Shown one piece after another: positions 1 to 39,574 of a stretch of 39,715 nucleotides of DNA; within the stretch, counting starts at the first letter, position 1, and each line of letters opens with the position of its first letter. A program made the position numbers and the translations under genes. Source of the DNA: an uncultured Planctomycetales bacterium. GTDB taxonomy: Bacteria; Omnitrophota; Gorgyraeia; Zapsychrales; Fredricksoniimonadaceae. The DNA is taken from NCBI GenBank assembly GCA_964498235.1, contig CAZCHB010000001.1:1-39715 (forward strand), read 5' to 3'. The notes beneath the pieces are model-generated. The model saw only the letters and a program-made list of their open reading frames with translations, searched no databases and was not told where the DNA came from.

Positions 1-3000
1 CATAGGTAATGTGCTCGGGATTAACCACAAGATTATTATCGTTGTCTTTTTTAATAGTAAAGGTAAGGCTCTTAACTACCTCACCTGGTTTATCTGGATT
101 GGCTTTATTAATATCCCACGTGAAGGTCGCTTTATCCGCAACAGACAAATTCTGCGCGGATGGATCGGCGGTGCTGACAAAATTACCATCATAATTATTA
201 ACCAATAAAAACGATGTCGGCTTAATCTGGGCCTCATTCAAGGTCATGGATTGCAGTTCGGCTGTTGTTGCAATGACAGGTTTTGTTTGCGAAGCATTAT
301 CTGTCGGTATCTCAACCGTGATGCCTCGGCCATCCGCGCGGGTCATTACCACCTGTTTCAAACCATAATCGTCATCATAGGCACTTTTAAATTTACTATA
401 TTTTTTAGCTTCCTCTTCTCCCACCATCGATACAATCTTAGCCTTAACCTGTGCTTTTTGTGCGTCGCTAAGCTTTTTCTCTTCTGAAGGTGGTTCTTCT
501 AAGCGGCCCGTTGCCTTGGCGACAACGCCTGGCAGCATAGGCACATTCATTTCCCCGCCGCTAAAAACAAAACCCCACGCGCGGCCGCGGTTATCTTCAT
601 TGTAGAGCGGAGAGGCCTTCCACTGTGCATCGCTTGTTTCAAAACGCCATCCCATTTTTCTTGAATGATTGTCATCGGCCGTTGCTGAATCAATGCTTGT
701 CATCAACTGGCCTGCCCCTGTCAATAAACGCCCGCCCGTGATCTCATAAGAAGAATCGGAAACCGGGCTAAAGCGGCCATAGGTGTCAATGTTGCCGCCA
801 AAACCATTGTCATAATTTTGGTTTGTATGGGAGGTGATAGCATATTCTTCTGGAATATATCCTTCAATAAAGCCTTGCGGATTAATTTTTACCCGTCCGT
901 CCTTCTTTAATTGGTTAAGGACCTCGACGCCCAATTGGCTTTGGTGGATGCGGACACTGCCCCATTCTTTCTGGCCGTAAATATTTTGGACTAAATTCTC
1001 CGTCCCAAAGAAGTTACGGCTGCCGTTATCCATCTTGACTGTCCCGGATAAGACCAGGCTGTTAGGGTCTTTAGGGGCCAGACTTCCCTGCATGGAGAGG
1101 TGATACGCGCCTGTTTCTACAAGGCCGCCATTAAAATCCAGAATATCCAAATCATGACGGGAAACCTTGCTTTCTATATTGCTTGTCAGCGGTGCATCCT
1201 TGGTGATCCCATTGAAAATGCTGGCATTGATGGCATTGAAATTAAAGGTCGGCATGCCGTCTTGGAGATTAAAATATAACGCTGATTTGCCCTCACTAAT
1301 GGCTGTCCTTAACTTACCATAAGCTTTGCCTTGATCCAGATTGTTCATCCCTAGATCAGGTGAATCATTCATATTCAAATGTTCTTTTAAAGAATCGAAG
1401 CCTGCTTCATCAATGGTGCTAAAAAGAGACCCTGTTCCGATCGCCCCCTCTAAAACAACACCGCTGTTAAGGCTGATTGGCTCAACCCCGCCTCTGGTCC
1501 CTGGCCGCACATTCGCCGTTGTTTCGCGGGAATACCATTGCCCGCTGCCGCCTAAGGCTGCCTGATCAACTAATCCTGTTGCGTCAAACTTCACTTCATT
1601 AATCTTAACATTGCGATGCCCGGCTTCTGGCGTATATTGGTCAATATCACCCGTCGCAAGAACATCCAATCCAGCAGGTCGCATAACGCCTCTGTCTGTC
1701 AACAACATGTATTTTAAACTGCTTAATCCTGCTGGATCAGGCATGGCGGTTAATTTGCTGTTGATGATAATATTTTCATTTGTCAACGGATTAGCAACAA
1801 TTCCGACGGTAGAATGATCAACAACATAGGTCGGTTGACCATCAGCGTACCTGACCGTATCGGTTTTTGTCCAGGCAGGAATACCAAATGAGATCGCATC
1901 AAAAACATCCGGGGCATTGCTCTGCGCGCTTGTTGTAACGGTGGCATAGGTCCCGTTATCAACGCGCATCTTGCCATTAACAATATCAATCCCATAAATG
2001 CCATCGCGGTATCCCTCATGGGGAGTCAAGGTGACATTATACGTTGGGGTACTGGTAATCGTAAAATTTTTATCCATCAAGACCCGCACGTCGCTGGTGT
2101 CCTGCGATAATTGGCCGGCGATAAAATGATCGTTAAAGGTGATGCGGCCTTCCGTTAATCCGCTGCCGTAAGGACGGGCATAGGGCACGCCGTCATCCGT
2201 GACCATCTCACCGTTTCCAGCAAAGGTTCCTTTTGGATCAGCCGCAGAAAGGCCAATCTTCGCTAATATCTGGCCATCGGTTAAATTCCCAACAACGCGG
2301 AATAAATTTTTAGGGTCGCCCTGTCTTTGTTGGAAGGGCGTGGCTGGTTCGTTGCCTGCTGGCTCGCCTTTGAATTTGACTTGAACAGGGATTACTGCAT
2401 CTTTAACGCCCTTGAATGTATATTGGAATAATTTTGATTCAACTGGAACTAATTGTTCGATAACACGCCCATCCCTTGTCACATTCCCGGACGTCGCCTG
2501 CGCCCAGCCGCTGACATATTTCATATCATTAGGGCTAAACTGCGCGCCTTGCGCGCCGCTTATCCCAAACACTAAATCCTTGGTCACCGACGTATTAACC
2601 GTAAAAACGTACTTACCCTTATATTCACCATCTTCAACTTCCGCCCCTGACCTGGACTGGTTCCCAAATCCTTTTTCAAAAATCAATTGCGCTTGTTTAT
2701 TCGCGCCAGTCAAAAAGAAATGGTTGTGGGTTTTCCCGTCAGGCGTGATAAAAATAAATTGATTGCGGCCTAAAACGAGGGCATCATTTTTAGCTAAATT
2801 GCGGGCACTTAAATAGGTTTTACCCGGCGTATCCAGATAACGAAAAATACCATAATTCTCAATGACACCGTTGTCGGTGACCACGAGGCGCTCGTCATAG
2901 CTCTTATTGTCCTTGCCGCGGCCGAAATTAAATTGGCCGCCTTTATCGGCGGTAAATATTTCCGGCCGCCCGTTGCCGGGATTGATCATACTGCCATGGG

Positions 3001-6000
3001 CATCGTAAAGGACATGGACATTACCATTTTTGTCTTCTTCAATAAAACCTGCGTTAATATTCGCTTCTGCTTCTTTAAATCCGCTGACCAAGGCCCGTGT
3101 TGCCACCGTGCTGTACCGGCCAACAGCAGGATCCCAAATAAAATTCTTATGCTGAGCGGCCAATCCTTCTTTATCATCGCCCGCACCTTCTTGACGGGGC
3201 ATCTTCCACGCCCCATTGGTCATCGTATAAGCACGCCCGCCGTTAATAACAGCGCCAGCTTTAACCCTGCCATTATTATCAACGGCAATGGAGGGAAGGC
3301 CTTGAACCTTGACAAAATTCACATGCTGTCCATTATCAAAAGTCTTGAAACTGCTGCTTAACACATTGCTTAAGCCTAAATTCTGACCGCTGGTTAAAAC
3401 AATGTTGGCCAGGTTTTTGTCTGCAACGCCTTTATCATCAAAGCTCCAGAACTTCATTGTGCCTTGGAAATTGCCTGACGCAGGAGCGGCGCCGACAAAG
3501 GAGAAAATCTTATCGCCCCCACGGCTTTCGGCACCAATACTAAAGGTAATGTCATTGATGCCCGCATCAGCAGCGCTCTGCGGCAAGACGCCTAAGAATT
3601 GCATATCTGCAGGGCTGTAGGCCTTGCTGATAATCCGCTCATTGATGTTCTTAACAGACCCTTGTGCCTGACCTTGTAATACTCCATCTTTTTTCATTTC
3701 CGCAAGCCATCCATCGCCGCCTTCTGCCTGCACAAACGTGCGCAGGTCGTTTTCTTCCGCCTGGTTTAAGCCAAACATTGATCCGAAATATTTCGCATCA
3801 CCGATAATGCCCATAGTGTTAGCGCCCTGGGCGTTTTTACCTAACCTAAAACCTGTACTGGCAAAATTAGGATCATTAAATCCTTCACGGCTTAAGAAAA
3901 ATTCATTTCTCTTTCCATCAACGCCCATGATTTGAGTTGCCCCTAATTTCCCATACCCCCAAATCTTGCCGAATCTTGAACCGGAGACATTGCTGTAAAT
4001 ATTAGCGGAAGAACCCCATGGGGATTTTGAATCAAAACCTTTGTTAAAGGATGTGGCGACAAACCCGTGCGGAACAGACGCCTTCCATGTGGTGTTAAAT
4101 TCAACACCTTGATCATGCAGGTTTTGTTGATTACGCACATCCGTAAAATTTCCTTCTAAATTAACATTCGCCCCAAGAACTAAGGCGCTTTTAATTGTGT
4201 CGGCAATTGGTGTCCTGCCATCAACAAAGCTATAGCCGTTCTCATCTTTGACAACTAGCGCAACGCCAACCCCTTGGTCATTCTGCACTTGCTGGCCTTC
4301 AGGCGTGATGCCCCATTGTTGAACCTTAGCCGCGGTCTCCGCGTGCATAATAGAGACAGCATAGCGGCCTTCCTTACCGGGCTGTTCATTCCACGCAAAG
4401 GTCATCATATTCTTATCAACACCGGGACAGAAAATCGCACCGCTGCCGACGCCTAGGTATTTTCCATTGACCATGCTCTCCGCGTAAGCATAGCTGGAAT
4501 CATATCCATTTTTACTTACATCGTGTAATTGCGGTCTCCATGTAAAACCATACCCTTCTAATTTTCGCGCTTGTTCCTTTGTGATATATGCAGAGATGGG
4601 AACTTCCACTACAGCCGCGATAAAATTTGTAATGGCAGGCTGTTCAAGCGCATTACTAATATGATCGATATTCATAAGCCCGGGAGTAATCATATTTTGC
4701 TGCCATAAAGCCAAATGGAATTGATCGTCCACGGAAGGCGTAGAAGAAGCCACGGGAATGCCCGATATATAATTTGGCGTAATCAATCCTCCAGCCGCGC
4801 GAGAGGTTCCAAGCGCATTAACGCCTGAGCCAACAACATTGTTAGCTTTTATGGAATTGTAAAGTTTTTCTGTTTGAACAGCCCATTGCGGCGTAAATCC
4901 TGTTAACCTGTCAATGGTATCGCTGTAAGCAACAAAATTAGCCACTGATCCCCAGGTGCCGGTTGATAAAAATTGCCCCAAATAATTTGTCCCAAAAAGC
5001 GCGTCCTTACCGCTTTCGATAAACGCACCCATATTGCTTCTGGCGCTGGCGCCGTTATCAGGCCTGGCCTCATTAATAAATTTATCCGCCGTTCCTTGTG
5101 TATTAAAAATGTTCCCAATATGATTATTCCCCTGATCAAGGATTGACATAAGGCCGCCCGCAGCAACAGAGGAAGCGACAAATACAAGCGCGCGGAATTG
5201 TGCTTTATTGGTACGGTAATCGTAGGTGCCGTCATCCTTGCCAATAAAAGATTTTTCTAAAGAAGCAAAAGCCATTGAAAGAATCGCCCTGGCAGCTCCC
5301 GTCTTTAACGCACTGTAGGCTGACTGCCAAACATCATCCCCTGATCTACCATAAACAAACCCGCTCGTAATACCTGAGGTTCCCGCGCTAACAAATTGAC
5401 CTAAGCCTTGGGAAAAACCATCACTGGCTTTGATGCCTGCCTGCGCGGCAATTAAACGCACCGCCATGCCGCTAAATTGTCCCGCTATAGTTGGAACAGC
5501 GTCCCACATCACCTTGGACATACCGTCAACAAATGACACCGGTTTAATATCATCCGCAATATATATCAATTGCCGCGTATAGGCTGAGTCATACGCGCCC
5601 GACCATGACGTGCCTTTAAAAGAAATGCCTTGGGATTGCACGACGCCTGCAAACGCTTGCGGTTCAATAGCGCCGTCTTTAAGCGTACCCATGATTGCGG
5701 CTTTAGCTTCAGCACCTAAAGCGTCTAATTTCCCAGAAATATACTCCTGCTTAATCACGGCAGGATTAGCGCCTTGTGCTTCTGGAGGCAAAGAATTCAC
5801 ATAACTATCAGCCTGATCATTAAGAGCGGCGGCAACGGCTTGGCTTCCTTTTTCTGCCGCGCTATCTGAGCCGGCCAACCCCAAACTCGGCGTAAAAAAC
5901 GCCCGATCCATCAAATGATCCGCCGCCAAACTAAATGCCCCCACGGCCAAACTGCCGCCTACCGTCGAACCTACAATCATGAGCGTTTCTTTGATAATTT

Positions 6001-7546
6001 GATTTGAATCACTACATTCTTTTGCGGGGTCTGAACAAATCATGTCATCAATAAGCTTAACGATCTGATATTGCGCCTCCGCCTTGATCAATCCCAACAT
6101 TAATCCCTTGCCAAAACTCGCGGCAAAACCTGCCATGGTTAATTCCTTAGTGGCATTTGCGGCAACTGCGGATGCGCTCGCGCCTGGCGCGGCTGTTACG
6201 GCGCTTGACCCTAAATTAAAAAGCTCCTTAAAGAAATCGCCGATCTTATTAAAAATATTATTGATGCCGTTATAAACGTCTTTGATAAATCCGCCGATGC
6301 CCGTGTCCCCGGCTTCTTTGACCATTGCGCCCAATGCGCCTCCAGATGCGGCGGCGGCAGGATCTATATATCCGGCCCCATAGTTAATCCCCATCGACAA
6401 AGCTGCGGAGAGCAAAAACGCGGAATGGCCATCGCAAACACCTTGCATCACGCAGATACTTGTAATGGTGGAAACTAGCGATGACGCGGCAATCCCAAAG
6501 GCCATCCCGTACGGGCTTAAGACCGACATGGCAACCGTCAGCCCAATCTGGGTAAACAATTGTGTATCAGAAACAAAGCCGGGTAAATCCTTGCTTTGGT
6601 CGCGCCACTTATCGCCCCAGACAAATGCTTCTAAAGCTTGAGGAACAGATTCATACAGATTTGACTTGGCCGCCTTTAATAACAGCTTGCTAACAAAGGC
6701 ATAGCCATCCATTTTTTGTTCTAGGTCTTTTTTATCTAAAACTGACAGCTGGCCTAAATCAGCCACCGTAACCTTTTCACCCGAAACTTTTTTAACAGTG
6801 ATAAAATGTTCGCCCTTAAGGTGGACAATAAATGGCGCTTGGAGTTTTAAAATATCTTTGGGCTCTGCCTTAATGCTGGTGTAGTTTAATCCCAGCGCGT
6901 CCCCCACCTTATGGATCGCAAACAAGGTGCTTTTGAGTTTTGGTTCGCCAACCTTGATGATGTCACTCATCAGGTCAACAGAAATATTAAGCACCGCTAA
7001 TTCTTCCAGACTGCGGTTTTTATTTTGGGAATCAACGATATCTTTTAAGCTGTACGCCGCGCAATTAAGCGGATGAATGCCGGGCGCGTTTAACCAGCTA
7101 ATGATTTCCTGAATCTTGGCTTTATTAAATTTGGCCCTGGTCTCAACGTTTAACGCTGAGGATTCAGCACCCATTTTTTTATCCGGACTGTCTAAGTTGA
7201 TTTTTAAGTTAAGTTTATCTTTATCTTTAATCTGCTGTAATAAATACTCAACGCTTTTGGAAACTTGAACCGCCGGCAAAGGCATGGACATGCCGTTTTC
7301 ATTACTACGAACCATGCCAGCGCGTTCGCCCCAAATCACTGCTGGATTATAACCAAAAGCCCAGCTGATTTGATCAGGAATAAATGCGGTCAAAACAACA
7401 ATGGCAATTGTCCTAACCCATGCATTGAAACGACTTACGAAGATTGGAGCAGAAGGATTTAAAACGATGTTTTCCGTAACTGGAGCACCCTCAACGGATG
7501 GAGATGAATCAGGAGAATTATGTAAATTTTTCTCGTCGTGCATCAT
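1..7546 (-). CDS. Giant membrane protein, 5' part only (at least 2515 codons visible, gene continues past the left window edge). It has an N-terminal TM helix, a C39-like peptidase-like domain, a Gly/Ala-rich multi-TM block, then a long hydrophilic region.
   Basis: I read the reverse complement by eye from ATG ATG CAC GAC GAG (complement of 7541-7546) and found no in-frame stop down to base 1. All four minus-strand ORFs listed in 1-7546 (ends 2019, 3216, 4140, 5244) are in a different frame, and no minus ORF in the 7546 frame is listed. That is expected if the track omits ORFs lacking a stop inside the window. The N-terminus reads MMHDEKNLHNSPDSSPSVEG...WVRTIAIVVLTAFIPDQISWAF. Confidence 0.85.
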   Translation of the reverse strand, partial: MMHDEKNLHNSPDSSPSVEGAPVTENIVLNPSAPIFVSRFNAWVRTIAIVVLTAFIPDQISWAFGYNPAVIWGERAGMVRSNENGMSMPLPAVQVSKSVEYLLQQIKDKDKLNLKINLDSPDKKMGAESSALNVETRAKFNKAKIQEIISWLNAPGIHPLNCAAYSLKDIVDSQNKNRSLEELAVLNISVDLMSDIIKVGEPKLKSTLFAIHKVGDALGLNYTSIKAEPKDILKLQAPFIVHLKGEHFITVKKVSGEKVTVADLGQLSVLDKKDLEQKMDGYAFVSKLLLKAAKSNLYESVPQALEAFVWGDKWRDQSKDLPGFVSDTQLFTQIGLTVAMSVLSPYGMAFGIAASSLVSTITSICVMQGVCDGHSAFLLSAALSMGINYGAGYIDPAAAASGGALGAMVKEAGDTGIGGFIKDVYNGINNIFNKIGDFFKELFNLGSSAVTAAPGASASAVAANATKELTMAGFAASFGKGLMLGLIKAEAQYQIVKLIDDMICSDPAKECSDSNQIIKETLMIVGSTVGGSLAVGAFSLAADHLMDRAFFTPSLGLAGSDSAAEKGSQAVAAALNDQADSYVNSLPPEAQGANPAVIKQEYISGKLDALGAEAKAAIMGTLKDGAIEPQAFAGVVQSQGISFKGTSWSGAYDSAYTRQLIYIADDIKPVSFVDGMSKVMWDAVPTIAGQFSGMAVRLIAAQAGIKASDGFSQGLGQFVSAGTSGITSGFVYGRSGDDVWQSAYSALKTGAARAILSMAFASLEKSFIGKDDGTYDYRTNKAQFRALVFVASSVAAGGLMSILDQGNNHIGNIFNTQGTADKFINEARPDNGASARSNMGAFIESGKDALFGTNYLGQFLSTGTWGSVANFVAYSDTIDRLTGFTPQWAVQTEKLYNSIKANNVVGSGVNALGTSRAAGGLITPNYISGIPVASSTPSVDDQFHLALWQQNMITPGLMNIDHISNALEQPAITNFIAAVVEVPISAYITKEQARKLEGYGFTWRPQLHDVSKNGYDSSYAYAESMVNGKYLGVGSGAIFCPGVDKNMMTFAWNEQPGKEGRYAVSIMHAETAAKVQQWGITPEGQQVQNDQGVGVALVVKDENGYSFVDGRTPIADTIKSALVLGANVNLEGNFTDVRNQQNLHDQGVEFNTTWKASVPHGFVATSFNKGFDSKSPWGSSANIYSNVSGSRFGKIWGYGKLGATQIMGVDGKRNEFFLSREGFNDPNFASTGFRLGKNAQGANTMGIIGDAKYFGSMFGLNQAEENDLRTFVQAEGGDGWLAEMKKDGVLQGQAQGSVKNINERIISKAYSPADMQFLGVLPQSAADAGINDITFSIGAESRGGDKIFSFVGAAPASGNFQGTMKFWSFDDKGVADKNLANIVLTSGQNLGLSNVLSSSFKTFDNGQHVNFVKVQGLPSIAVDNNGRVKAGAVINGGRAYTMTNGAWKMPRQEGAGDDKEGLAAQHKNFIWDPAVGRYSTVATRALVSGFKEAEANINAGFIEEDKNGNVHVLYDAHGSMINPGNGRPEIFTADKGGQFNFGRGKDNKSYDERLVVTDNGVIENYGIFRYLDTPGKTYLSARNLAKNDALVLGRNQFIFITPDGKTHNHFFLTGANKQAQLIFEKGFGNQSRSGAEVEDGEYKGKYVFTVNTSVTKDLVFGISGAQGAQFSPNDMKYVSGWAQATSGNVTRDGRVIEQLVPVESKLFQYTFKGVKDAVIPVQVKFKGEPAGNEPATPFQQRQGDPKNLFRVVGNLTDGQILAKIGLSAADPKGTFAGNGEMVTDDGVPYARPYGSGLTEGRITFNDHFIAGQLSQDTSDVRVLMDKNFTITSTPTYNVTLTPHEGYRDGIYGIDIVNGKMRVDNGTYATVTTSAQSNAPDVFDAISFGIPAWTKTDTVRYADGQPTYVVDHSTVGIVANPLTNENIIINSKLTAMPDPAGLSSLKYMLLTDRGVMRPAGLDVLATGDIDQYTPEAGHRNVKINEVKFDATGLVDQAALGGSGQWYSRETTANVRPGTRGGVEPISLNSGVVLEGAIGTGSLFSTIDEAGFDSLKEHLNMNDSPDLGMNNLDQGKAYGKLRTAISEGKSALYFNLQDGMPTFNFNAINASIFNGITKDAPLTSNIESKVSRHDLDILDFNGGLVETGAYHLSMQGSLAPKDPNSLVLSGTVKMDNGSRNFFGTENLVQNIYGQKEWGSVRIHQSQLGVEVLNQLKKDGRVKINPQGFIEGYIPEEYAITSHTNQNYDNGFGGNIDTYGRFSPVSDSSYEITGGRLLTGAGQLMTSIDSATADDNHSRKMGWRFETSDAQWKASPLYNEDNRGRAWGFVFSGGEMNVPMLPGVVAKATGRLEEPPSEEKKLSDAQKAQVKAKIVSMVGEEEAKKYSKFKSAYDDDYGLKQVVMTRADGRGITVEIPTDNASQTKPVIATTAELQSMTLNEAQIKPTSFLLVNNYDGNFVSTADPSAQNLSVADKATFTWDINKANPDKPGEVVKSLTFTIKKDNDNNLVVNPEHITY

Positions 7547-7797: not shown

Positions 7798-7900
7798 AAT
7801 TAATGTCCAGACTGGACATTAATTGTGATTTTTTATCAAAACAATCTCCAGTCTGACAAAATTAATGTCCAGACTGGACAATTATTGTCCAGTCTGGAAA
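7798..7900. repeat. Array of four phased copies of the TGTCCAGWCTGGACA palindrome between the tadC stop and the giant-gene promoter
   Basis: Copy A at 7798-7824 is AATTAATGTCCAGACTGGACATTAATT, a perfect 13-1-13 palindrome. Copy B is degenerate (CTCCAGTCTGACA, centre 7852). Copy C has a perfect core at 7866-7880. Copy D at 7886-7900 is TTGTCCAGTCTGGAAA. The centres 7811, 7852, 7873 and 7893 are spaced 41, 21 and 20 bp apart. Confidence 0.9.
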
Positions 7901-7905
7901 GATTA

Positions 7906-8817
7906 CTACTTAGCCAAGTTTTGTAATGGATTATTTTGGAAGAAATCCAAGAAGACCGGACCAGCAACTAAGATGGCCACTACTGGAAAAATAAATAAAA
8001 GCAGCGGAATAAGCATCTTAAGCGGGGCTTTCATCGCCATGGTTTCTCCCCTGCGGAAACGCGCCAAGCGCATGTCTTCAGAGAGAATATTAAGGGCATC
8101 GCTAACCGAGGTCCCCATGCGGTCGGCCTGAATAAGCGTCCGTGAAAAGGTCGACAGGTCAGGCAATTCATATTTGCGAGCCATGTCGCGCAGGGCATCC
8201 CTGCGAGGCTTGCCCACATTGATCTCCTGTATCATATTTTGAAACTCTTCAATCAACACTGATGGAGCAGACTTTTCAATGACATATTTTAAGGCCATCA
8301 TAAAATCAAGACCAGCATTGACGCAAAGCCCTAAAAGATCAACGGTATCCGGCAATTCCCGCACAATTAAATCGCGCACCTTCCTAATTTTCATCTTCAG
8401 CCAAAATTCCGGCAGGTAATACCCCAACCCAACGCTCATCAGCAAACCAAATAAAAATAACTCTGATTTCGGTCCCATATATACAAAGGTCATCCATAAT
8501 AAGACGGCGATAAAGATTTCCTTAATCAAGAAAAACTCATCAGCCTTTATCGGAAGGCGGGCCATGGCCAAATCTTTTGAAATGCGCTGACCTAAGGGGC
8601 TTATAACAAGCGGGAGATTAAAAACGGCCAGCTTGCTGATAATCATAAATATGAAGCCCAGCACCCCCTTCTTCTTTGGGGCCTTAGCAGGCGCCGCCAA
8701 ATCAAAAGGCGTCGGCTCGATATTTAATTTCGGACGGCTATCCCATTTAAAAGGAACAAAAGCCAATACAAAAATAAATACCGAAGCAAAAATAAACATC
8801 AAACATAACAGTAACAT
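7906..8817 (-). CDS. tadC: TadC-like inner-membrane platform protein (T2SS-F/GspF family)
   Basis: The 303-aa protein has several TM segments and a T2SSF-like core (LPDTVDLLGLCVNAGLDFMMALKYVIEKS; RFRRGETMAMKAPLKMLIPLLLFIFP). It is the second of two tandem T2SSF paralogs. Confidence 0.75.
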   Translation of the reverse strand: MLLLCLMFIFASVFIFVLAFVPFKWDSRPKLNIEPTPFDLAAPAKAPKKKGVLGFIFMIISKLAVFNLPLVISPLGQRISKDLAMARLPIKADEFFLIKEIFIAVLLWMTFVYMGPKSELFLFGLLMSVGLGYYLPEFWLKMKIRKVRDLIVRELPDTVDLLGLCVNAGLDFMMALKYVIEKSAPSVLIEEFQNMIQEINVGKPRRDALRDMARKYELPDLSTFSRTLIQADRMGTSVSDALNILSEDMRLARFRRGETMAMKAPLKMLIPLLLFIFPVVAILVAGPVFLDFFQNNPLQNLAK

Positions 8818-17207: not shown

Positions 17208-18617
17208 CTAATTCTCCTCGGAAACACACTTAACATTAATGCTCAAAATTTGGTCCGCTTCGTTTTTAACCCCCAGCGTACTGATTGCAGCACACCCTGA
17301 TTTTAGATTGTCCGCTGTTTCATAAACATTTGGAATTAATAGTGTTACAATCCTAATGTGACTATTAAAAGCGATTTGCCCTTTAAATAACATTAATTGA
17401 GACCACTGATCGTCGCTTAAAAGCCTTGGAAAACAAGACTGCGCCTGCAGCTTTAGGAAATCAATATAATTATTGACCGGTCCCTCGGGACTTTCCGCCA
17501 TAGATAAGGGCCCGTTAAAAGGATGCTGTTTAAAAAATTCGCGCACAATTTCCCCGTCGCTAATCGACTCAGAAAAATTGCTAATGAGAACCTTATAGGG
17601 CTCATTATTCTCTGCGCATAAAATCACTGCGCGGCATTTCATGTTAGCTAACAAGATTTCTTTAGCAAAAAATCTCAGCGGCGCCTCTTGGCCGTAAGCG
17701 TCAACTATTAACATTTCTTTGTTTGAAATATTCATAAATTCTTTTATATCAACTACTTGTGTTCCTATCCCAACAATAAACTGCTTTTTGGGCGCACCTT
17801 CTAAAGGAAAACTGACAAACGCTTCTCCCTCTTTATCCAAAAGATCTATTTTAACAATGCCTTTCCCCGGCCGCCCTTGACACGATAAGAAAAAGTCAAA
17901 AAAGAAGGCCTCAAGCGATTCTCCTGCAACCTCTTTTATTACAATAGGTTGTAAATTGTTTACAAAAAGATTAGCCGCTGCTGTCAGCGCCCTCTCCAGC
18001 GGGGCCGGCCAATTTTTGCCCTCTTTCGCCTGAAGCCCTTGCAAGCGGCTATCCACACAAAAAGAGCTCCCATCTTCTAATAAAAATCTATAACCATAAA
18101 TCACCAAAGACCTATAAAGCAGTTCTTCCTTTAAACTATTGAAATCAAATGATTTAAAATCTTCTAGCGAGCTCATCCCCCGCCATGGTTTGGGAAAAAA
18201 ATCGTAATGCACGGCTTTTAAAATATACTCTCCCGCCCCTTGCTGAATCCCAGCATCTGTTAGCGCCATTAGCGGTTCATGATTAACTGTTTTAACTGCC
18301 GTTGGCAGCTCAATTTTTTCGTGCTTAACGAAAACAGGAGAGGGGCTTGCTTCTTCCAATGGCTTTACGCGCGGTTGAACAAATAACTGCGCCTTCTTTT
18401 CATAAGGAATTTGAAATTTTTCTTTTTGTTTACGGCCGCGGGGACTGCCAATTTTAGCTTCAATTAATACTTCATTGATAGATGATTTTGACACTTGGCG
18501 TTCGAATTGTGTTTGAATTTGATGCGCTAATTCCCGACAGGATAATTGGGGCAATTCACGCTTTTGCGTTAAAATAAAATGGACAATCTCTTCTGTCAGC
18601 TTATATTTAACGCCCAC
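17208..18617 (-). CDS. Unknown protein with an N-terminal helix-turn-helix-like domain, embedded in the Tad operon
   Basis: The 469-aa ORF has a GTG start. Residues 1-60 (KLTEEIVHFILTQKRELPQLSCRELAHQIQTQFERQVSKSSINEVLIEAKIGSPRGRKQ) look like a small HTH domain. I recognise no family in the rest. A palindrome copy lies 19-37 nt upstream of the start. Confidence 0.5.
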   Translation of the reverse strand: MGVKYKLTEEIVHFILTQKRELPQLSCRELAHQIQTQFERQVSKSSINEVLIEAKIGSPRGRKQKEKFQIPYEKKAQLFVQPRVKPLEEASPSPVFVKHEKIELPTAVKTVNHEPLMALTDAGIQQGAGEYILKAVHYDFFPKPWRGMSSLEDFKSFDFNSLKEELLYRSLVIYGYRFLLEDGSSFCVDSRLQGLQAKEGKNWPAPLERALTAAANLFVNNLQPIVIKEVAGESLEAFFFDFFLSCQGRPGKGIVKIDLLDKEGEAFVSFPLEGAPKKQFIVGIGTQVVDIKEFMNISNKEMLIVDAYGQEAPLRFFAKEILLANMKCRAVILCAENNEPYKVLISNFSESISDGEIVREFFKQHPFNGPLSMAESPEGPVNNYIDFLKLQAQSCFPRLLSDDQWSQLMLFKGQIAFNSHIRIVTLLIPNVYETADNLKSGCAAISTLGVKNEADQILSINVKCVSEEN

Positions 18618-18635: not shown

Positions 18636-18654
18636 AATGTCCAGACTGGACATT
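18636..18654. repeat. Palindrome copy E (AATGTCCAGACTGGACATT, perfect 9-1-9) between DUF192 and the HTH gene
   Basis: The core at 18638-18652 is exact. A left half-site TTGTCC at 18658-18663 implies a second centre about 21 bp away, the same geometry as copies C and D. Confidence 0.9.
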
Positions 18655-18664
18655 TAATTGTCCG

Positions 18665-19003
18665 TCACCAGCTGATTTGATCGCCGACGGCTGTACTGGT
18701 GCGTTCAATTGTACCAGCAGGAAGTTCAATGGCGCAAGCAGATTTCCAGAAAATAGGAGAGAGGTTAAAAGGCCTCAGGTTAGGGCAAAGGCCGACAACA
18801 ATGTTAACTTTATCGACAAAAATAACATCAATGGAAAAGCGCATAAAAAACATATGGACTGATTGGCAAGGCCTGATAATCAATCCCTCGCCTTGTTTTA
18901 ACGCATGCCTGCCAAGCAATCCTTTCATGCGCGCCAAAGACGTGTCAGCGAACACTGCGCTGTCCGCCAATTCACAATGACGTGTATTATTAAGGATTTT
19001 CAA
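18665..19003 (-). CDS. DUF192 (COG1430) family protein
   Basis: The 112-aa protein matches the DUF192 pattern (ADTSLARMKGLLGRHALKQGEGLIIRPCQSVHMFFMRFSIDVIFVD...AIELPAGT). It overlaps the ATPase gene by 14 nt. Confidence 0.6.
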   Translation of the reverse strand: MKILNNTRHCELADSAVFADTSLARMKGLLGRHALKQGEGLIIRPCQSVHMFFMRFSIDVIFVDKVNIVVGLCPNLRPFNLSPIFWKSACAIELPAGTIERTSTAVGDQISW

Positions 19004-21161
19004 TTTTTTTAAATATAGCCTCGCTAAGCGGGATGCCGCGGGTCAGAAAATCGTCAAATGCTTTCGGAATATATCCCGTCGGTATATACTCACCTAAAAC
19101 AACCCCTTCAGGATTGATGCCCTTTTGTTTGAAAACAAAAATATCTTTCATCTCCGGCATCCCTTCGTTCATCTGACCGGTTAACTCTGTAATGGCCGTT
19201 ATTTTGCGGGATCCGTCAGAAAAACGGTTAATCTGGACAATAATATTTATTGCGGATGCGGACATTTCATAAATAGCACGAATAGGCAGTTCAATGCCGG
19301 ACAATAGCACCATTGAGCTTAGGCGCGCCAGAACGTCCCGCGGTGTATTCGCATGCAAGGTTGTCAACGACCCGTCGTGACCCGTGTTCATCGCCTGGAG
19401 CATGTCAAGCACCTCAGGCCCGCGGCACTCACCAATAATAATCCGATCAGGACGCATACGCAGCGTGTTAATAAATAGGTCGCGGATAGAGATACGGCCC
19501 TTGCCTTCAATATTGGGCGGGCGTGATTCTAAGCGAGCCCAATGGCTTTTAGATAATCGCAATTCTGCGGCATCTTCAATGGTGATGATGCGCTCGTTAT
19601 CCGGAATAAACTGGGAAACAATGTTAAGCAGAGTTGTCTTCCCGGCCCCGGTGCCGCCGGAAACTATAATATTTTTACGCCCAATGACGCACGCATTTAA
19701 AAAATCCGCCATGGGTTGGGAAATGCTGTGGAACTTTGTTAACAAATCATCAATGGTGTAACGTTCGCTGGAAAATTTCCGAATCGTTATCATCGGGCCG
19801 TTTAAAGACAACGGCGGAATGATGGCGTTAATACGGCTTCCGTCGGGTAAACGGGCATCCACCATCGGGGTTGACTCGTCAACCCGCCGGCCGAGGGGGG
19901 CAATAATACGGTCAATGGTCGCCCTTACCTGATCATTTGAAATAAAACGTTTGTTTGTCAGGATTAATTTTCCGCGTTTCTCAACAAATATCTCGTCCTT
20001 GCTGTTGACCATGATATCGTTAATTTCAGGATCCGCTAAGAAATCTTCCAACGCCCCAAGGCCCAGAGCTTCATTAACAATCTCGCGCACAAGACGGGAA
20101 CGCTCTTCCTGCGACGAGAGAAACGCGCCGGAAGCCTCTGCTAACAGGTCGGTAATTATTTTTTCCGCCGCTTTGCGGATATTGGCCGACTGCGCCGGGT
20201 CCGTCAGCGCTTCCGGTGATATTTTCTGCAGATTCATCCGCTCAACTAAACGCAAGTGAATAGCTTTCTTTAACTTAACAACTTCATCTTCTTCTTTATT
20301 AAACCCTAAATTCTTTGCCGTTCCTGAATTCGGCGCGATACCAAACTTTTGCCAGAATTCATTTCCTTTTTTAGATGTTTCATCGGCGCTTCGAACCTTG
20401 ATCACATCCGATCCCTGCACAAAAATATCTTCACTTTGAAGCCGTTCCGCGATTTCAAAAAATACTTCTGCCACCTTCATTTTTGGACTATCTATCACGC
20501 AAGGAACTCCGCGGTTTAACGCCATGCCTACTGTTTTCCCGTCGGAAGGAATCAGGGTAAAAATATCGCAAGCAATCGCCGTCTTAACCTCCTGCCATGC
20601 GACACCGCCGCGGCTTTCTGCCCTATTAAGGATCAGCTTAATCATTTTAAGCGGATAATGAAGGCTTTGAATAATTTCCAAGGATGTTTTCGCTTGATAA
20701 ACGGCTAAAATATCAGGTGTCGCCACTAGAAAAATAAGGTTGGCCGAATCAAAAATGCTGATCAAAATTTCGCTGAAGATGTTTCCAGCGTCAATGATGA
20801 TAAAATCGTAAAGTTGGGATGATTTTTTAAAAAATGGGCGGATATTGTCCGCAGTAATGTGGCCAGCCTGCCGTAAATGGTTAACCCCTGGAAGGAAATC
20901 CAACCCGCTGACATGGCGGGTCACATATTTATTAATAATGTCCGGCTTATCATTTTTATCAATCTCTGATAGAAGATCGACGAGAGAATAAGCCGTTGAC
21001 AAATTAAGCATGCGCGCCATGTCCTGGCTCGCGTGCAAGTCCATGTCAACTAAAAGGACGCGGCGGCCTTTAATGGCCAGAGCGGCCGCCGTATTAACAC
21101 TGGCAAACGTCTTGCCGACCCCGCCTTTATTTGAAAAAAATGTGATTGTTTTTGAAGACAT
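18990..21161 (-). CDS. tadA: Fusion protein: an N-terminal ParA/MinD-type (TadZ/CpaE-like) ATPase domain joined to a C-terminal CpaF/TadA secretion ATPase
   Basis: The 723-aa protein has a deviant Walker A (FFSNKGGVGKTFASVNTAAAL...VLLVDMDL) in the first 250 aa or so. From about aa 330 it has CpaF-type motifs: GGTGAGKTTLLN (Walker A), RIIIGECRGPEVLDMLQAMNTGHDGSLTTLHAN. Confidence 0.85.
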   Translation of the reverse strand: MSSKTITFFSNKGGVGKTFASVNTAAALAIKGRRVLLVDMDLHASQDMARMLNLSTAYSLVDLLSEIDKNDKPDIINKYVTRHVSGLDFLPGVNHLRQAGHITADNIRPFFKKSSQLYDFIIIDAGNIFSEILISIFDSANLIFLVATPDILAVYQAKTSLEIIQSLHYPLKMIKLILNRAESRGGVAWQEVKTAIACDIFTLIPSDGKTVGMALNRGVPCVIDSPKMKVAEVFFEIAERLQSEDIFVQGSDVIKVRSADETSKKGNEFWQKFGIAPNSGTAKNLGFNKEEDEVVKLKKAIHLRLVERMNLQKISPEALTDPAQSANIRKAAEKIITDLLAEASGAFLSSQEERSRLVREIVNEALGLGALEDFLADPEINDIMVNSKDEIFVEKRGKLILTNKRFISNDQVRATIDRIIAPLGRRVDESTPMVDARLPDGSRINAIIPPLSLNGPMITIRKFSSERYTIDDLLTKFHSISQPMADFLNACVIGRKNIIVSGGTGAGKTTLLNIVSQFIPDNERIITIEDAAELRLSKSHWARLESRPPNIEGKGRISIRDLFINTLRMRPDRIIIGECRGPEVLDMLQAMNTGHDGSLTTLHANTPRDVLARLSSMVLLSGIELPIRAIYEMSASAINIIVQINRFSDGSRKITAITELTGQMNEGMPEMKDIFVFKQKGINPEGVVLGEYIPTGYIPKAFDDFLTRGIPLSEAIFKKIENP

Positions 21162-27512: not shown

Positions 27513-27589
27513 GACCCCATCGTCTAGCCCGGTCAGGACAAGAGCTTTTCAAGCTCTCGGCGCGGGTTCAAATCCCGCTGGGGTCACCA
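27513..27589 (+). tRNA. tRNA-Glu (anticodon UUC), with CCA encoded
   Basis: I folded it by hand. The acceptor stem is GACCCCA/TGGGGTC, the D stem GTCT/GGAC, and the anticodon stem AGAGC/GCTCT with loop TTTTCAA (anticodon TTC). The T arm is GCGGG-TTCAAAT-CCCGC, followed by discriminator A and CCA. Confidence 0.9.
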
Positions 27590-36047: not shown

Positions 36048-37610
36048 ATGAATCAGAAGACACTTTTAGCAATTATTCTTTCCATTATGGTTCTATTTGG
36101 GTATGAAGCTATATTTGTTGCTCCAAAACGTGCCCAAATGTTAAAAGAATCGAAAAGTATTACTGAAAAAGAACTTACGCAAAATAAAGAAATTTTAACT
36201 CAGGTCACGGACGCCGTCCAAGAAAAAACCAAAAACAAGCAATTTGAAGGCAAAATATGGGAAATTAAAACCCCTTCATTTGTATCACATGTGACAAATG
36301 AGGGCGGCGCGCTCCATAATATTAAGGTGGGGGCAGGACACGCCTTTCCTTTAAACCAAATTATCACCATCAAGGGGATTAGTGAGTCGGAATTCAAATT
36401 GGTTTCACAAAACGCAGATAAGACGGTTTTATCATACCAAGATGATAAAAAGAGGGTTTTAAAGACATATGAAGTTAAGGATCGGAATACAATTTTAGCC
36501 AGAGTGGACATTAATTCAAAAGAAATGTCCAGTCTGGACAATGTTCAGTTTCAGATTTTCAGAGTGGACAATTCTTTGATTGATAGTAATGACAAACGTG
36601 ACATGGGGCTGGAGGAGTACTCAGTATCAGCTAATAAGAAAATATTTAGAAAAAACAATATTTCGAAATTTAATCCAAAAGAAAATAAGATTGAATCGAT
36701 TGATATTGACTGGGCAGGATTCCGGAATCATTTTTCAACCATTGTTATTCATCCTGATTTTGCGACGAAAGCCTATGAAATAAATACAGTTACAGAAAAA
36801 CAGTTAAGTATATATGTGACGCCTGCAAGCCAAAGCACCAGCTATGAATTTACCTGCTATATAGGACCTCAAGATCCAGCGCTCATGAAGAAGTACGAAA
36901 AGGGGATTGAAAACATATTTGCCTTTTTTAATTGGAATGTGCTCGATATTTTTGCCAAGGCAATATATTTCACAATTCCTTTTCTACATTCTATATTTAA
37001 AAGTTGGGGATTTAGTATTATTTTGATTAGTCTGATTATTTATGGGTTAACATATCCGCTAACATTTAAAAGCATGATGTCTATGCGAAAAATGCAGCAA
37101 GTCCAGCCGAAGATCAAGGCATTACAAGACCGTTTTAAAAATGACCCGCAGAAGCTAAATACTGAAATTATGGATATATACAAGAAAGAAAAGATTAATC
37201 CGCTGGGGGGGTGTTTACCGTTCCTGCTTCAAATGCCCATTTTTGTTGCTTTATATCAAGTGTTGTGGAGATCTTATTATTTTCAAGGAGAATCATTTCT
37301 ATGGATTAAAGATTTAGCCCTGCCTGACAGGCTATTTATTATGCCTTTTTCCTTGCCTTTATTAGGAAATGAATTTAATATATTACCATTGTTAATGGCG
37401 GCAGTTATGTTTTTACAACAGAAGATTTCGTCTAAAAATTTGGTTGTCACCGACGAGCAGCAGGCTATGCAGCAAAAAATGATGTTATATTTATTTCCGA
37501 TTTTTATAGGTTTTATTTTTTATAAATTTGCCAGCGGGCTATCGCTATATTTTACTGTTTTTTATGCTTTATCCGCCGCAACGCAGTGGAAAATGAGTAA
37601 GATAAAATAG
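36048..37610 (+). CDS. yidC: Membrane protein insertase YidC (long form with a periplasmic P1 domain)
   Basis: The 520-aa protein has an N-terminal TM segment and the conserved core NPLGGCLPFLLQMPIFVALYQVL...LYLFPIFIGFIFYKFASGLSLYF. Confidence 0.93.
   Translation: MNQKTLLAIILSIMVLFGYEAIFVAPKRAQMLKESKSITEKELTQNKEILTQVTDAVQEKTKNKQFEGKIWEIKTPSFVSHVTNEGGALHNIKVGAGHAFPLNQIITIKGISESEFKLVSQNADKTVLSYQDDKKRVLKTYEVKDRNTILARVDINSKEMSSLDNVQFQIFRVDNSLIDSNDKRDMGLEEYSVSANKKIFRKNNISKFNPKENKIESIDIDWAGFRNHFSTIVIHPDFATKAYEINTVTEKQLSIYVTPASQSTSYEFTCYIGPQDPALMKKYEKGIENIFAFFNWNVLDIFAKAIYFTIPFLHSIFKSWGFSIILISLIIYGLTYPLTFKSMMSMRKMQQVQPKIKALQDRFKNDPQKLNTEIMDIYKKEKINPLGGCLPFLLQMPIFVALYQVLWRSYYFQGESFLWIKDLALPDRLFIMPFSLPLLGNEFNILPLLMAAVMFLQQKISSKNLVVTDEQQAMQQKMMLYLFPIFIGFIFYKFASGLSLYFTVFYALSAATQWKMSKIK
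36499..36576. repeat. Three palindrome-family sites at exact 30-bp spacing inside the yidC coding sequence
   Basis: F1 is CCAGAGTGGACATTAATT (centre 36503). F2 has a perfect core TGTCCAGTCTGGACA at 36526-36540 (centre 36533). F3 is CAGAGTGGACAATT (centre 36563). The region encodes ARVDINSKEMSSLDNVQFQIFRVDNS. Confidence 0.85.
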
Positions 37611-37614
37611 CACA

Positions 37615-37821
37615 ATGATATTCGAAGGTGATACAAAAGAGTTTGAGGGTTGTACAGTAGAAGAGGCTATTTGTAAGGCGGAAAAGTCTTTTGGTGCGTC
37701 ACGTGAAACCATGCAAATTAAGATTGTTTGTGAAGAGCAAAAAGGTCTATTTGGGATGAGGGGCGCAAAATTGGCCAAGATAAAGGTCAAATCCGTTCCA
37801 CGTGGAACTAAGAAGTCCTGA
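37615..37821 (+). CDS. Jag/KhpB N-terminal-domain-only protein (no KH or R3H domains)
   Basis: The 68-aa protein sits in the canonical jag position after yidC. EGCTVEEAICKAEKSFGASRETMQIKIVCEEQKGLFGMRGAKLAKIKV fits the Jag_N pattern. Confidence 0.6.
   Translation: MIFEGDTKEFEGCTVEEAICKAEKSFGASRETMQIKIVCEEQKGLFGMRGAKLAKIKVKSVPRGTKKS
37695..37710. promoter_or_regulatory. Degenerate parS-like site (13/16 match)
   Basis: TGCGTCACGTGAAACC compared with the consensus TGTTNCACGTGAAACA. Confidence 0.35.
37794..37809. promoter_or_regulatory. Near-canonical parS centromere site
   Basis: CGTTCCACGTGGAACT has a perfectly palindromic inner 14 bp (GTTCCACGTGGAAC) identical to the conserved parS core TGTTCCACGTGGAACA. 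It lies 67 nt upstream of the parA start. Confidence 0.8.
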
Positions 37822-37829
37822 ATTTTTAA

Positions 37830-37851
37830 ATTAATGTCCAGTCTGGACAAT
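37830..37851. repeat. Palindrome copy G (ATTAATGTCCAGTCTGGACAAT) between parS and the parA start
   Basis: The perfect core is at 37835-37849 (centre 37842), 34 nt upstream of the parA ATG. A weak half-site GTCCTG is centred 21 bp upstream at 37821. Confidence 0.9.
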
Positions 37852-37875: not shown

Positions 37876-38685
37876 ATGGGAAAAACAATAGCTATATGTA
37901 ATCAAAAAGGTGGGACAGGAAAAACCACAACATCGGTTAATTTATCAGCTGCGCTTTCATTTGCTGATAAAAAAGTGTTATTGGTTGATATGGATCCTCA
38001 GGGAAATGCCAGCAGTGGCGTTGGGATTAACAAGAATGATATTCAGGTTTCTGTATACGACATATTAGTTCATAAATCCAAAATACAAGATGTTATCATT
38101 AAAACTAACTATAAAAATCTTGATGTTATTCCTTGTAACATTCAATTAACAGGCGCTGAAATTGAATTGGTTGGCGCCTTATCAAGAGAAACTAGGCTGA
38201 AGAAGGCCATTGAAAGTATTAAAGATCAGTATGATTTTATTTTTATTGATTCTCCGCCATCATTAGGGCTATTAACCCTTAATGCTTTAGTAGCTGCAGA
38301 TTCTATTCTGATTCCAATTCAATGCGAGTTTTATGCGCTTGAAGGAGTGTCACAACTCATTAATACTATTGAACTTATAAAAGATGGTCTAAATTCTTCT
38401 TTGGAGATTCAAGGTGTTTTGATGACCATGGCTGATTTTCGGACCAATTTAACTAATGAAGTTATTAATGAAATCAAAAATTACTTCAAAGATAAGGTAT
38501 ACAATACGGTTATTCCGCGCAATATCCGGCTTAGTGAAGCGCCTAGTTTTGGCAAGCCGATTAATTATTATGATCCAGCATCAGTTGGCTCAATCAAATA
38601 TAAAGAGCTTGCTCAAGAATTTTTAGGCATGCCTCAGGTTACAGCGCAAGCCATTCATCTAGGAGAAAATCAGAATGGACAATAA
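37876..38685 (+). CDS. parA: Chromosome partitioning ATPase ParA/Soj
   Basis: The 269-aa protein has a deviant Walker A (NQKGGTGKTTTSVNLSAAL) plus VLLVDMDPQGNAS and FIFIDSPPSLG. Confidence 0.93.
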   Translation: MGKTIAICNQKGGTGKTTTSVNLSAALSFADKKVLLVDMDPQGNASSGVGINKNDIQVSVYDILVHKSKIQDVIIKTNYKNLDVIPCNIQLTGAEIELVGALSRETRLKKAIESIKDQYDFIFIDSPPSLGLLTLNALVAADSILIPIQCEFYALEGVSQLINTIELIKDGLNSSLEIQGVLMTMADFRTNLTNEVINEIKNYFKDKVYNTVIPRNIRLSEAPSFGKPINYYDPASVGSIKYKELAQEFLGMPQVTAQAIHLGENQNGQ

Positions 38686-39574
38686 AGTTTTAGGCAAGGG
38701 GTTGTCAGCTTTAATACCGCAGCGCAAAACAGAGCAATATGTGTCTGTTTATTCAGAAGAAAAAAACAATGTCCATTCTGAAAGCAATAAAAAAGATGAA
38801 TTAATGTCCAGTCTGGACATTAATTTAATAAGAAACAACCGTTTTCAGCCGCGCAAAAATTATGATGAGTCTAAACTAGGCGAATTAAAAGCTTCAATTA
38901 AAGAAAAAGGCGTGCTTCAGCCTATTTTAGTACGTCCAGTTGGTAATGAATATGAAGTTGTAGCAGGGGAGCGCCGCTTAAGGGCCTCAAGAGAACTGAA
39001 CTTAAAAAAAGTGCCTGTTATTATTAAAAATATTACCGATCGCGAAGCTTTAGTTTTAGCATTGGTTGAAAATATCCAGCGGGAAGAATTAAACCCCATT
39101 GAAGAAGCCCAAGGGTTTAAGCGTTTGATCGAAGAATTTAATTTTACGCAGGAAACAGTGGCGGACTCAGTTGGCAAAGACCGCACAACCGTTACCAATT
39201 TTTTGCGATTGCTGAAACTGCCAAAAGAAATTCAAGATTTTGTTGCTTCGGATAAATTGTCGGTTGGACATGCGCGTACGTTGTTAAGTCTCGACGAGAA
39301 AATGCAAAAAAAGACAGCGGCGGATATTATAGCTAAAGGCTTGTCTGTCCGTCAGGTTGAGGCCATGGTTAAGAAAATTCTCGAAGGCCATCTAGCTGGC
39401 GCGCCTAAGAAAATCTCTTCTAAAGTGCGGGATATACAGATTCTCGAGGAGGAATTAAGCCGGACGCTGGGGACCAAGGTCTGTGTTGAAAATAAAAACA
39501 ATAAAGGCAGGGTTGTTATTGAATATTATTCATTAGACGACTTAGACCGTATTTTAGGAGTTATAAGAAAATGA
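38675..39574 (+). CDS. parB: Chromosome partitioning protein ParB/Spo0J
   Basis: The 299-aa protein contains LGKGLSALI, FQPRKNYDESKLGELKASIKEKGVLQPILVRP, GERRLRAS (CTP-binding box) and the HTH QETVADSVGKDRTTVTNFLRLL. Confidence 0.93.
   Translation: MDNKVLGKGLSALIPQRKTEQYVSVYSEEKNNVHSESNKKDELMSSLDINLIRNNRFQPRKNYDESKLGELKASIKEKGVLQPILVRPVGNEYEVVAGERRLRASRELNLKKVPVIIKNITDREALVLALVENIQREELNPIEEAQGFKRLIEEFNFTQETVADSVGKDRTTVTNFLRLLKLPKEIQDFVASDKLSVGHARTLLSLDEKMQKKTAADIIAKGLSVRQVEAMVKKILEGHLAGAPKKISSKVRDIQILEEELSRTLGTKVCVENKNNKGRVVIEYYSLDDLDRILGVIRK
38799..38825. repeat. Palindrome copy H2: a perfect 27-bp palindrome inside the parB coding sequence
   Basis: AATTAATGTCCAGTCTGGACATTAATT is the exact reverse complement of copy A at 7798-7824. 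It encodes ELMSSLDINL. A degenerate copy (AATGTCCATTCTGAAAG) is centred at 38777. Confidence 0.9.

Follow-up and report, generated by a model that had tools for sequence, protein, structure and literature searches.

The closest described counterparts of the DNA element analyzed here are the operators of autoregulated helix-turn-helix (HTH) repressors, which follow the logic of LexA, TetR or phage repressors, and those of KorB, a ParB homologue of the IncP plasmid RK2. The OB operators of KorB (TTTAGCSGCTAAA) are odd-length palindromes with a degenerate center, and they occur in about a dozen promoter-proximal, promoter-distal and intragenic copies. A further comparison is CENP-B, a transposase-derived DNA-binding protein, for proteins in which an HTH of the HTH_32/Tc3 type is combined with a basic arm. 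The element in question is a 15-bp palindrome, TGTCCAGWCTGGACA, found in positions 1 to 39,715 of contig CAZCHB010000001.1 (assembly GCA_964498235.1, deposited as an uncultured Planctomycetales bacterium and placed in the Omnitrophota by its GTDB lineage). This whole stretch of 39,715 nucleotides is called the window below. An earlier note, made from the letters of the window and a list of its open reading frames (ORFs), had singled out the palindrome as an origin-proximal family of sites, and we follow it up here by comparative analysis.

The Omnitrophota are ultra-small, uncultured bacteria that probably live as predators or parasites; their hallmark is a Tad pilus locus located beside genes that encode the largest bacterial proteins known (PMC10066038; bioRxiv 10.64898/2026.06.07.730766). 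The Tad locus of V. archaeovorus is found at 12-30 kb of the genome (PMC10066038). Neither of these two papers mentions a palindrome, an operator or an HTH regulator of the Tad locus, and a full-text literature search for the motif returned chance 13-mer matches only, in an unrelated organoid paper and its preprint. We report that the palindrome is a real, conserved cis-element nearly confined to the Omnitrophota. We further propose, with a probability of roughly two in three, that it serves as operator for an autoregulated HTH regulator, which belongs to a new family and would control the locus made up of the Tad genes and a neighboring giant gene. The cognate binder is most probably a 469-aa protein encoded within the same locus.

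A conserved palindrome nearly confined to the Omnitrophota

The exact palindrome is present six times in the window, starting at positions 7804, 7866, 18638, 36526, 37835 and 38805, and it did not appear in any of 100 dinucleotide-preserving shuffles of the window. With three mismatches or fewer, 10 sites were found against 0.39 expected. A 12-nt half-site pattern, ATGTCCARWCTG, gave 16 matches against 0.51 expected, which brings in 38769 as a half-site and 7844 as a degenerate copy. The six copies were recovered, as were degenerate copies and half-sites at the places given in the earlier note. A 19-mer, AATGTCCAGWCTGGACAWT, is common to all six exact copies, perfect 27-bp palindromes are found at 7798-7824 and 38799-38825, and the symmetry is broken at one base only. 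In matrix form the motif is written AATGTCCARWCTGGACAWT, and its variant form is AATGTCCAATCTGGA.

We scanned the 19-mer against one genome per GTDB species, metagenomes and viral contigs. The expectation by chance, calculated for the GTDB collection, was approximately 17. The GTDB scan returned 28 loci. Nineteen of them are Omnitrophota metagenome-assembled genomes (MAGs), or MAGs mislabeled as 'uncultured Planctomycetales' that carry Omnitrophota-type genes, and these matches come from 19 different assemblies with a single exact 19-mer locus each. The other nine lie within ORFs of unrelated taxa and look like chance. With 62 further loci from the metagenome scan, the set amounted to 90 loci, whose contexts were assigned by tblastn with the window proteins (loci are designated below by L numbers). 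The single match among viral contigs, inside a 785-aa ORF, appears to be a contig already recovered in the metagenome scan; it was taken as chance and gives no general link to phages.

Because the palindrome is phylum-specific and present in low copy number, it does not behave like a repetitive extragenic palindrome (REP). The earlier note had named a REP-like pattern as the outcome that would speak against a DNA site. What we found is one exact locus per MAG assembly, copies in promoters and coding regions, and a near absence of compensatory changes. Conservation in related genomes, whose absence the note would have counted against any function, is present, at homologous positions in Omnitrophota loci. 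A recombinase core site, dif, a DNA uptake sequence and a restriction site were also considered as identities of the motif and rejected on copy number, symmetry and conserved orthologous positions.

One metagenome contig of 3,991 nt, L033, carries copies at 1496-1510 and 3284-3298. One of the two has a single mismatch, and the other, an exact copy, is found immediately before an ORF start. Its ORF at 1701-3248 looks by eye like a terminase large subunit, as a candidate only. This contig may represent an Omnitrophota phage that carries the host operator; the viral scan gave no further examples.

Position of the palindrome at the promoters of HTH genes

In half of the matched loci (45 of 90), the palindrome lies directly upstream of a gene for a homologue of the 469-aa HTH protein, following the genes for TadZ/A and a DUF192 protein. 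The HTH homologues encoded downstream of it are just 25 to 34% identical to the window protein. We examined promoter geometry in 35 distinct sequence contexts upstream of HTH homologues, calling a promoter when at least 9 of 12 consensus positions were matched. A sigma-70 promoter, mostly TTGACG-16-TATAAT, ends 2 to 6 nt before the palindrome in 29 of the 35 contexts, and in 27 of the 35 the ATG of a conserved MGV(I/T)YKL N-terminus is located 3 to 6 nt past it. As the usual distance between a -10 box and the start site is approximately 7 nt, transcription would start inside the left half-site. The palindrome would then cover the transcription start, the classical position of an autorepressor operator, and the RNA, starting inside it, would lack the full hairpin.

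The corresponding features of the window are as follows (palindromes are given without strand).

17208-18617, minus strand: gene for the 469-aa HTH protein, with a GTG start and a weak HTH_32 match
18638-18652: exact copy, 20 nt upstream of the GTG of the HTH gene and 13 nt past the DUF192 stop

By its position, the copy at 18638-18652 appears to be the homologue of the promoter-overlapping operator of other Omnitrophota, and the 20-nt spacer between it and the GTG holds a Shine-Dalgarno-like sequence. In L101, the closest relative, the HTH gene is preceded by a one-mismatch copy at a distance of 6 nt from its ATG. Immediately upstream of that copy, a perfect inverted repeat of about 25 bp (AATTAAGGGGACACCATACTTAATT ... 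AATTAAGTATGGTGTCCCCTTAATT) was also noticed (L101:1-85). The palindrome is also found inside the HTH gene itself in five loci (L002, L043, L058, L059 and L073).

Site and regulator gene co-occur across orthologues at 25 to 34% identity, and more distant homologues have variant sites. Homologues of approximately 20 to 25% identity keep the gene order rotamase, RcpC, secretin, TadZ/A, DUF192, HTH, pilins, TadB, TadC and giant gene, the latter coding for 40,116 aa in L091. Conservation of their DNA-binding domains persists (LSCR, SKSS), and the variant AATGTCCAATCTGGA(A/G) is found right in front of their ATG, in L091 also after tadC. The homologue of L095 is the only one of 52 with altered LSCR/GRK motifs, having LTCQ and PRARK for LSCR and PRGRK, and its promoter region (L095:9880-10000) displays a different inverted repeat, TTGACTGC-N6-GCAGTCAA. 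An altered DNA-binding motif together with a different palindrome may reflect co-variation of protein and site, as a single hint. Two distant lineages have IS200/IS605-type Y1_Tnp genes beside the HTH gene in the Tad locus (L091:7879-9584 and L100:11905-12387); in L091, an IS110-family transposase gene is present there as well.

The 469-aa protein and its family

The AlphaFold2 model of the 469-aa protein (pLDDT 84.6) comprises a three-helix HTH (aa 9-53) and an alpha/beta domain of 350 residues (aa 120-469), with a basic, disordered linker between them. The recognition helix contains an invariant SKSS, and a basic PRGRK arm follows the HTH. In the family, the first 65 or so residues are strongly conserved (LSCR, SKSS and the G-R-K/R basic arm), and the remainder is very divergent. 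A homologue search with the single sequence returned only the protein itself, and a profile built from the locus-derived homologues was needed to find relatives. The profile search yielded 52 of them, all unnamed or annotated as 'helix-turn-helix domain-containing' and none with a Pfam domain; nearly all the named ones are from the Omnitrophota. An exhaustive profile search gave 968 representative clusters (50% identity) at E values of 0.001 or lower. Analyses of the 52 members with Pfam and NCBIfam revealed no catalytic or C-terminal domain, and Foldseek comparisons of the C-terminal domain with the PDB and BFVD gave no significant match (none with an E value below 0.03). The family seems to be new and is large, with a transposase-like HTH, no Pfam domain and a C-terminal domain without known fold.

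The protein is the sole DNA-binding protein encoded in the Tad locus. The earlier note had put it forward for binding assays, and with the palindrome on the promoter of its gene in dozens of distant genomes, it is the best candidate binder.

An array of copies between tadC and the giant gene

The second conspicuous position is the interval between tadC and the giant gene, where four copies are spread over positions 7798-7900. Their centers are at 7811, 7852, 7873 and 7893, i.e., with spacings of 41, 21 and 20 bp, as given in the earlier note.

1-7546, minus strand: 5' part of the giant gene (ATG at 7546); the gene continues beyond the window edge
7798-7824: 27-bp perfect palindrome AATTAATGTCCAGACTGGACATTAATT, core 7804-7818, the array copy nearest the giant gene
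7845-7859: degenerate copy TCTCCAGTCTGACAA with one good half-site, center 7852
7866-7880: exact core copy, after tadC
7886-7900: one-mismatch copy TGTCCAGTCTGGAAA, 6 nt past the tadC stop
7906-8817, minus strand: tadC, stop at 7906; tadB is on the same strand

The same interval carries the palindrome in eight other loci (L008, L011, L014, L029, L031, L035, L045 and L079), often in two or three copies, and L091 has an array there too. Among all pairs of adjacent copies, 14 of 19 are spaced by 20 to 22, 30 to 33, 41 to 42 or 62 bp. These spacings suggest binding on one face of the helix, with the proviso that the arrays are partly homologous, that the pairs are not all independent, and that coding copies are bound to multiples of 3. 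The right half of the 7798-7824 palindrome, TGGACA, could act as the -35 element of a weak promoter-like sequence on the minus strand, TGGACA-16-TACTAT. Reading this half-site generally as a -35 box, or as a sigma-54 -24/-12 element, was dropped, as by eye it fits single copies only.

Signaling elements were observed near some of these loci. Downstream of the post-tadC copies in L029, positions 681-781 of the plus strand hold a c-di-GMP-I-GGC riboswitch aptamer (RF03167, 64.3 bits for a gathering score of 59). Lookalike stretches containing GCCACGG are present in L008, L031 and L014, and none reached an E value below 0.1 for the riboswitch. Genes for FIST proteins, histidine kinases and response regulators flank the Tad locus in L098 and L099, and a GGDEF domain is encoded in L098. 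The riboswitch and these genes hint at cyclic-dinucleotide control of the same locus.

Copies in yidC, parA and parB

A second group of copies lies at the other side of the replication origin, around the partition genes.

36496-36570: three copies in yidC, 30 bp apart, at 36496 (3 mismatches), 36526 (exact) and 36556 (3 mismatches); YidC residues ~152-172
37794-37809: parS-like GTTCCACGTGGAAC / CGTTCCACGTGGAACT at the 3' end of jag, a comparator outside the palindrome family
37835-37849: exact copy between jag and parA, with 26 nt on either side to the parS-like site upstream and the parA ATG downstream
38769-38780: half-site ATGTCCATTCTG inside parB
38799-38825: 27-bp perfect palindrome, core 38805-38819, in the 5' part of parB (residue ~46), reading LMSSLDI in frame

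These positions recur in other genomes. Copies in yidC, parA or parB were found in L004, L015, L023, L028, L039, L044, L050, L061, L065, L081, L085 and L089. The homologous positions are YidC residues ~155-180 (one to three copies), ParA residue ~81, the parA/parB junction and ParB residues 22-46. The yidC position of the window is shared with eight other Omnitrophota loci, and homologues of the copy at 38799-38825 are located at the parB N-terminus or the parA/parB junction in L015, L028, L061 and L089. Loci found through one site often hold independent copies, with up to two mismatches, at another, e.g., yidC in L004 and L015. L055 has two copies approximately 760 nt beyond rpmH, on the expected yidC side, in a stretch without a tblastn match. 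The copy at 37835-37849 has a weak -10-like TAAATT 2 nt upstream. In the YidC alignment, the 15-mer is kept while the surrounding residues vary, mostly reading MS(S/R)LD and sometimes using another frame, which argues for selection at the DNA level. The yidC, parA and parB copies are a second, real group. The description of the palindrome as origin-proximal is right in part. Its main and best conserved association is with the Tad/giant-gene locus and the regulator gene, a locus that happens to be next to oriC in this lineage.

The palindrome is not parS, as the earlier note had maintained. Compared with parS (a 16-bp palindrome close to TGTTNCACGTGNAACA), TGTCCAGWCTGGACA shares no core. In L004 (TGTTTCACGTGAAACA), L028, L044, L050, L061 and L065, the interval from jag to parA holds a conserved canonical parS, so that ParB has its own site. 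The ParB of the window has standard ParB_N, HTH_ParB and ParB_C domains. A second, weaker parS-like sequence, TGCGTCACGTGAAACC (3 mismatches), was noticed in jag at 37695-37710, about 100 bp upstream of the main one.

The presence of copies at homologous yidC, parA, parA/parB junction and parB positions in many loci, on both sides of the conserved parS, raises the question of whether a protein other than the 469-aa one is the binder. It would be encoded elsewhere and might be a chromosome-organizing, centromere-like or global cell-cycle factor, for which the parS-flanking copies would be primary, for instance in bounding or anchoring the ParB complex. The promoter of the HTH gene and the giant-gene region would then be no more than two targets of this factor. 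Sites in coding regions are indeed unusual for a simple local repressor. We nevertheless consider this explanation unlikely, since the commonest and best conserved position is the HTH gene's own promoter, a signature of autoregulation, and the motif tracks the HTH family into distant lineages. No second ParB-like gene or other DNA-binding gene was found in the window.

A more doubtful proposal unites the two groups of sites. A transposase-derived HTH protein would have a dual role, with some likeness to KorB of RK2, repressing its own gene and the giant locus and also occupying the sites that flank parS, and would thereby couple the origin and partition region to the Tad/giant adhesin. Its task might be to delimit the ParB complex or to anchor it. 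Alternatively, the origin copies might constitute a replication-dependent titration sink that times giant-gene expression with the cell cycle in these ultra-small bacteria, which live attached to hosts.

Conservation of sequence versus hairpin pairing

An inverted repeat may also act as RNA or single-stranded DNA, i.e., as a terminator or attenuator, a processing or stability element, or a REP-like repeat. The stem is perfect over up to 12 to 14 bp, and several copies of the window are at gene ends (after tadC, the DUF192 gene and jag). Three of the window copies, 7798-7824, 7866-7900 and 37835-37849, have T-rich tails and score as terminator-like, and 7866-7880 and 7886-7900 together can fold a 31-nt hairpin, also with a terminator-like score. 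Most of the homologous copies are placed between a -10 box and an ATG and have no U tract. In addition, the central base is T on the sense strand in all six exact window copies, as the earlier note had observed in keeping a strand-specific hairpin in play.

To discriminate between pairing and sequence, we compared 32 degenerate copies of the Omnitrophota loci with the consensus. They contain 61 one-sided changes that break a pair, 13 G-T changes, 2 double non-complementary changes and 1 compensatory change, and one good half-site is usually kept. The preference for a central T did not extend beyond the window: relative to gene direction, 30 of the HTH-promoter copies have A at the center and 12 have T, and the coding copies are mixed. 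The alternation of A and T within arrays, also pointed out in the note, is not seen in related genomes (T,T in L023; T,T,T and A,A,A in L089). The pair-breaking changes and the lack of a general strand preference of the central base argue that the site is read as DNA sequence rather than as an RNA hairpin. The palindrome behaves as the earlier note had favored, as a sequence-specific site in double-stranded DNA for a protein dimer.

Further observations make a hairpin function improbable. With the -10 box ending 2 to 6 nt before the palindrome at its commonest position, the RNA would be made without the left arm. Each of the 19 Omnitrophota assemblies has a single exact-match locus, and copies are also found within coding regions. 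Searches of the array with Rfam 15 gave no family at the gathering score, sub-threshold miRNA-type hairpin models being the only matches.

Transposase-like features of the HTH protein

The HTH domain has weak affinities with transposases. HTH_32 matches 20 of 20 N-terminal segments with a best E value of 4e-7, sub-threshold, and most members are matched by HTH_Tnp_Tc3_2, HTH_33 and HTH_32, all below the gathering scores. Residues 58-127 of the IS481 transposase model also give a match, with 19.6 bits for a cut-off of 224. An AT-hook-like GRK arm after the HTH is a feature of Tc1/mariner DNA-binding domains as well, and the best fold match in BFVD, non-significant, is an IS4 transposase. The system might then be a relic of a mobile element. 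The HTH protein would be an IS630/IS481/Tc1-like transposase that was domesticated or has decayed, and its terminal inverted repeats would have given rise to the palindromes. This we regard as very improbable: the copies are located at orthologous promoter and coding positions across distant species rather than at the ends of a movable segment, neither a DDE domain nor an RNase H-like fold was detected, and gene order around the HTH gene is fixed.

Finally, the idea that the genic copies reflect coincidence or simply encode a peptide such as MSSLD, being mostly in one frame as xMS(S/R)LDx, can practically be dismissed, given the shuffling result, the identical DNA of non-coding promoters, the exact 15-mer amid poorly conserved YidC and ParB residues, and the use of other frames (NVQTGH in L043, NVQSGQ in L039).

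Other features of the window

The remaining genes of the window are arranged on either side of the origin.

Minus strand: several unannotated ORFs and Flp-type pilin genes
Minus strand: DUF192 gene, adjoining the HTH gene with a 47-nt gap between them
18990-21161, minus strand: TadZ-TadA fusion
Minus strand: secretin, RcpC, gyrA, gyrB, dnaN and dnaA
Plus strand: rpmH, yidC (36048-37610), jag, parA and parB (38675-39574)

The GC skew of the window turns at approximately 35-36 kb and a DnaA box is present upstream of dnaA, indicating that the window spans oriC. In the TadZ-TadA fusion, of 723 aa, a secretion ATPase of the TadA/CpaF type is combined with a ParA/MinD-like TadZ domain; the fusion is conserved at 60 to 85% identity in all related loci. 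A tRNA gene (27513-27586, plus strand; RF00005, 65.4 bits) is located between gyrA and the next ORF, both on the minus strand; it was the only Rfam 15 match above threshold across the window.

Discussion

The arrangement of sites suggests how a regulator of this kind might work. A dimer of the 469-aa protein would recognize the inverted pair of TGTCCA half-sites with the three-helix HTH at its N-terminus, and the basic RGRK arm that follows may contact the A/T-rich flanks. At its own promoter, the bound protein would span the transcription start and block RNA polymerase, resulting in negative autoregulation. In the interval between tadC and the giant gene, two to four copies at near whole-helical-turn spacing would allow cooperative, tight control of a costly giant transcript. 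The large C-terminal domain could be a signal-sensing or oligomerization module that relieves repression. The yidC, parA and parB copies would tie the same protein to the origin and partition region, through roadblock repression of parAB, titration or DNA organization.

Several observations weigh against this proposal. The link between protein and site rests on co-localization and conservation. The sequence family, with its conservation, positions and promoter geometry, comes directly from the data, whereas which protein binds, in which direction it regulates and how the giant gene responds are inferences. No consensus sigma-70 promoter was found upstream of the 18638 copy of the window, and the promoter-overlap geometry is therefore deduced for the window from orthologous loci. 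The window array is approximately 250 bp upstream of the giant-gene ATG, and a better promoter-like match, TTGCTA-17-TATAAT (7594-7566), is far from the array sites. The position of the site relative to the giant gene varies widely across species; L093 has no site after tadC, and the promoter of the L095 HTH homologue lacks the site. A locus-specific repressor does not readily explain the conserved copies in yidC, parA and parB, and hairpins of the window score as terminator-like as well.

If the proposal is correct, the conserved operator and the candidate family of approximately 970 clusters provide a handle that can be tested by heterologous expression, without culturing the organism, and the motif could be used to predict a regulon in complete genomes. 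The yidC, parA and parB copies suggest a link between host attachment and chromosome segregation, which would be unusual if true. A dual regulatory and chromosome-organizing role is a minority reading, and it would be considerably more interesting if true.

Comparison with known systems brings out what may be new here. As in REPs, bacterial interspersed mosaic elements and intrinsic terminators, the inverted repeat could fold into a hairpin, and some window copies are at gene ends with T-rich tails; unlike in those elements, copy number is low, the positions are in promoters and coding regions, and sequence is kept rather than pairing. The protein shares with the IS630/Tc1-mariner and IS481 transposase domains an HTH of the HTH_32/Tc3 type followed by a basic GR(K/R) arm, but the matches are below curated thresholds, and there are no catalytic domain and no element ends. 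Like parS, the palindrome is found in and around parAB near oriC. It differs from parS by its sequence, its odd length and the presence of a separate canonical parS, and by having its most conserved copy at the HTH gene of the Tad locus. The KorB-OB system resembles it in the odd length of the palindrome, the degenerate central base, the scattered positions and the link with a partition locus. In contrast to KorB, the candidate binder is not a ParB homologue, the chromosomal ParB has its canonical parS nearby, and nothing points to spreading or to a part in partition.

In layout, the system resembles autoregulated HTH repressors: the inverted half-sites follow the -10 box and precede the start codon of the gene that encodes the regulator, a neighboring target promoter region holds additional copies, and the operators are near whole helical turns apart. 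The differences are that the 469-aa protein is outside the named families, with a transposase-like HTH and a 350-residue C-terminal domain without structural match, and that copies of the palindrome are conserved inside essential genes beside oriC. As judged from these comparisons, the palindrome and the HTH protein would represent a new regulator-operator pair of a familiar type of system.

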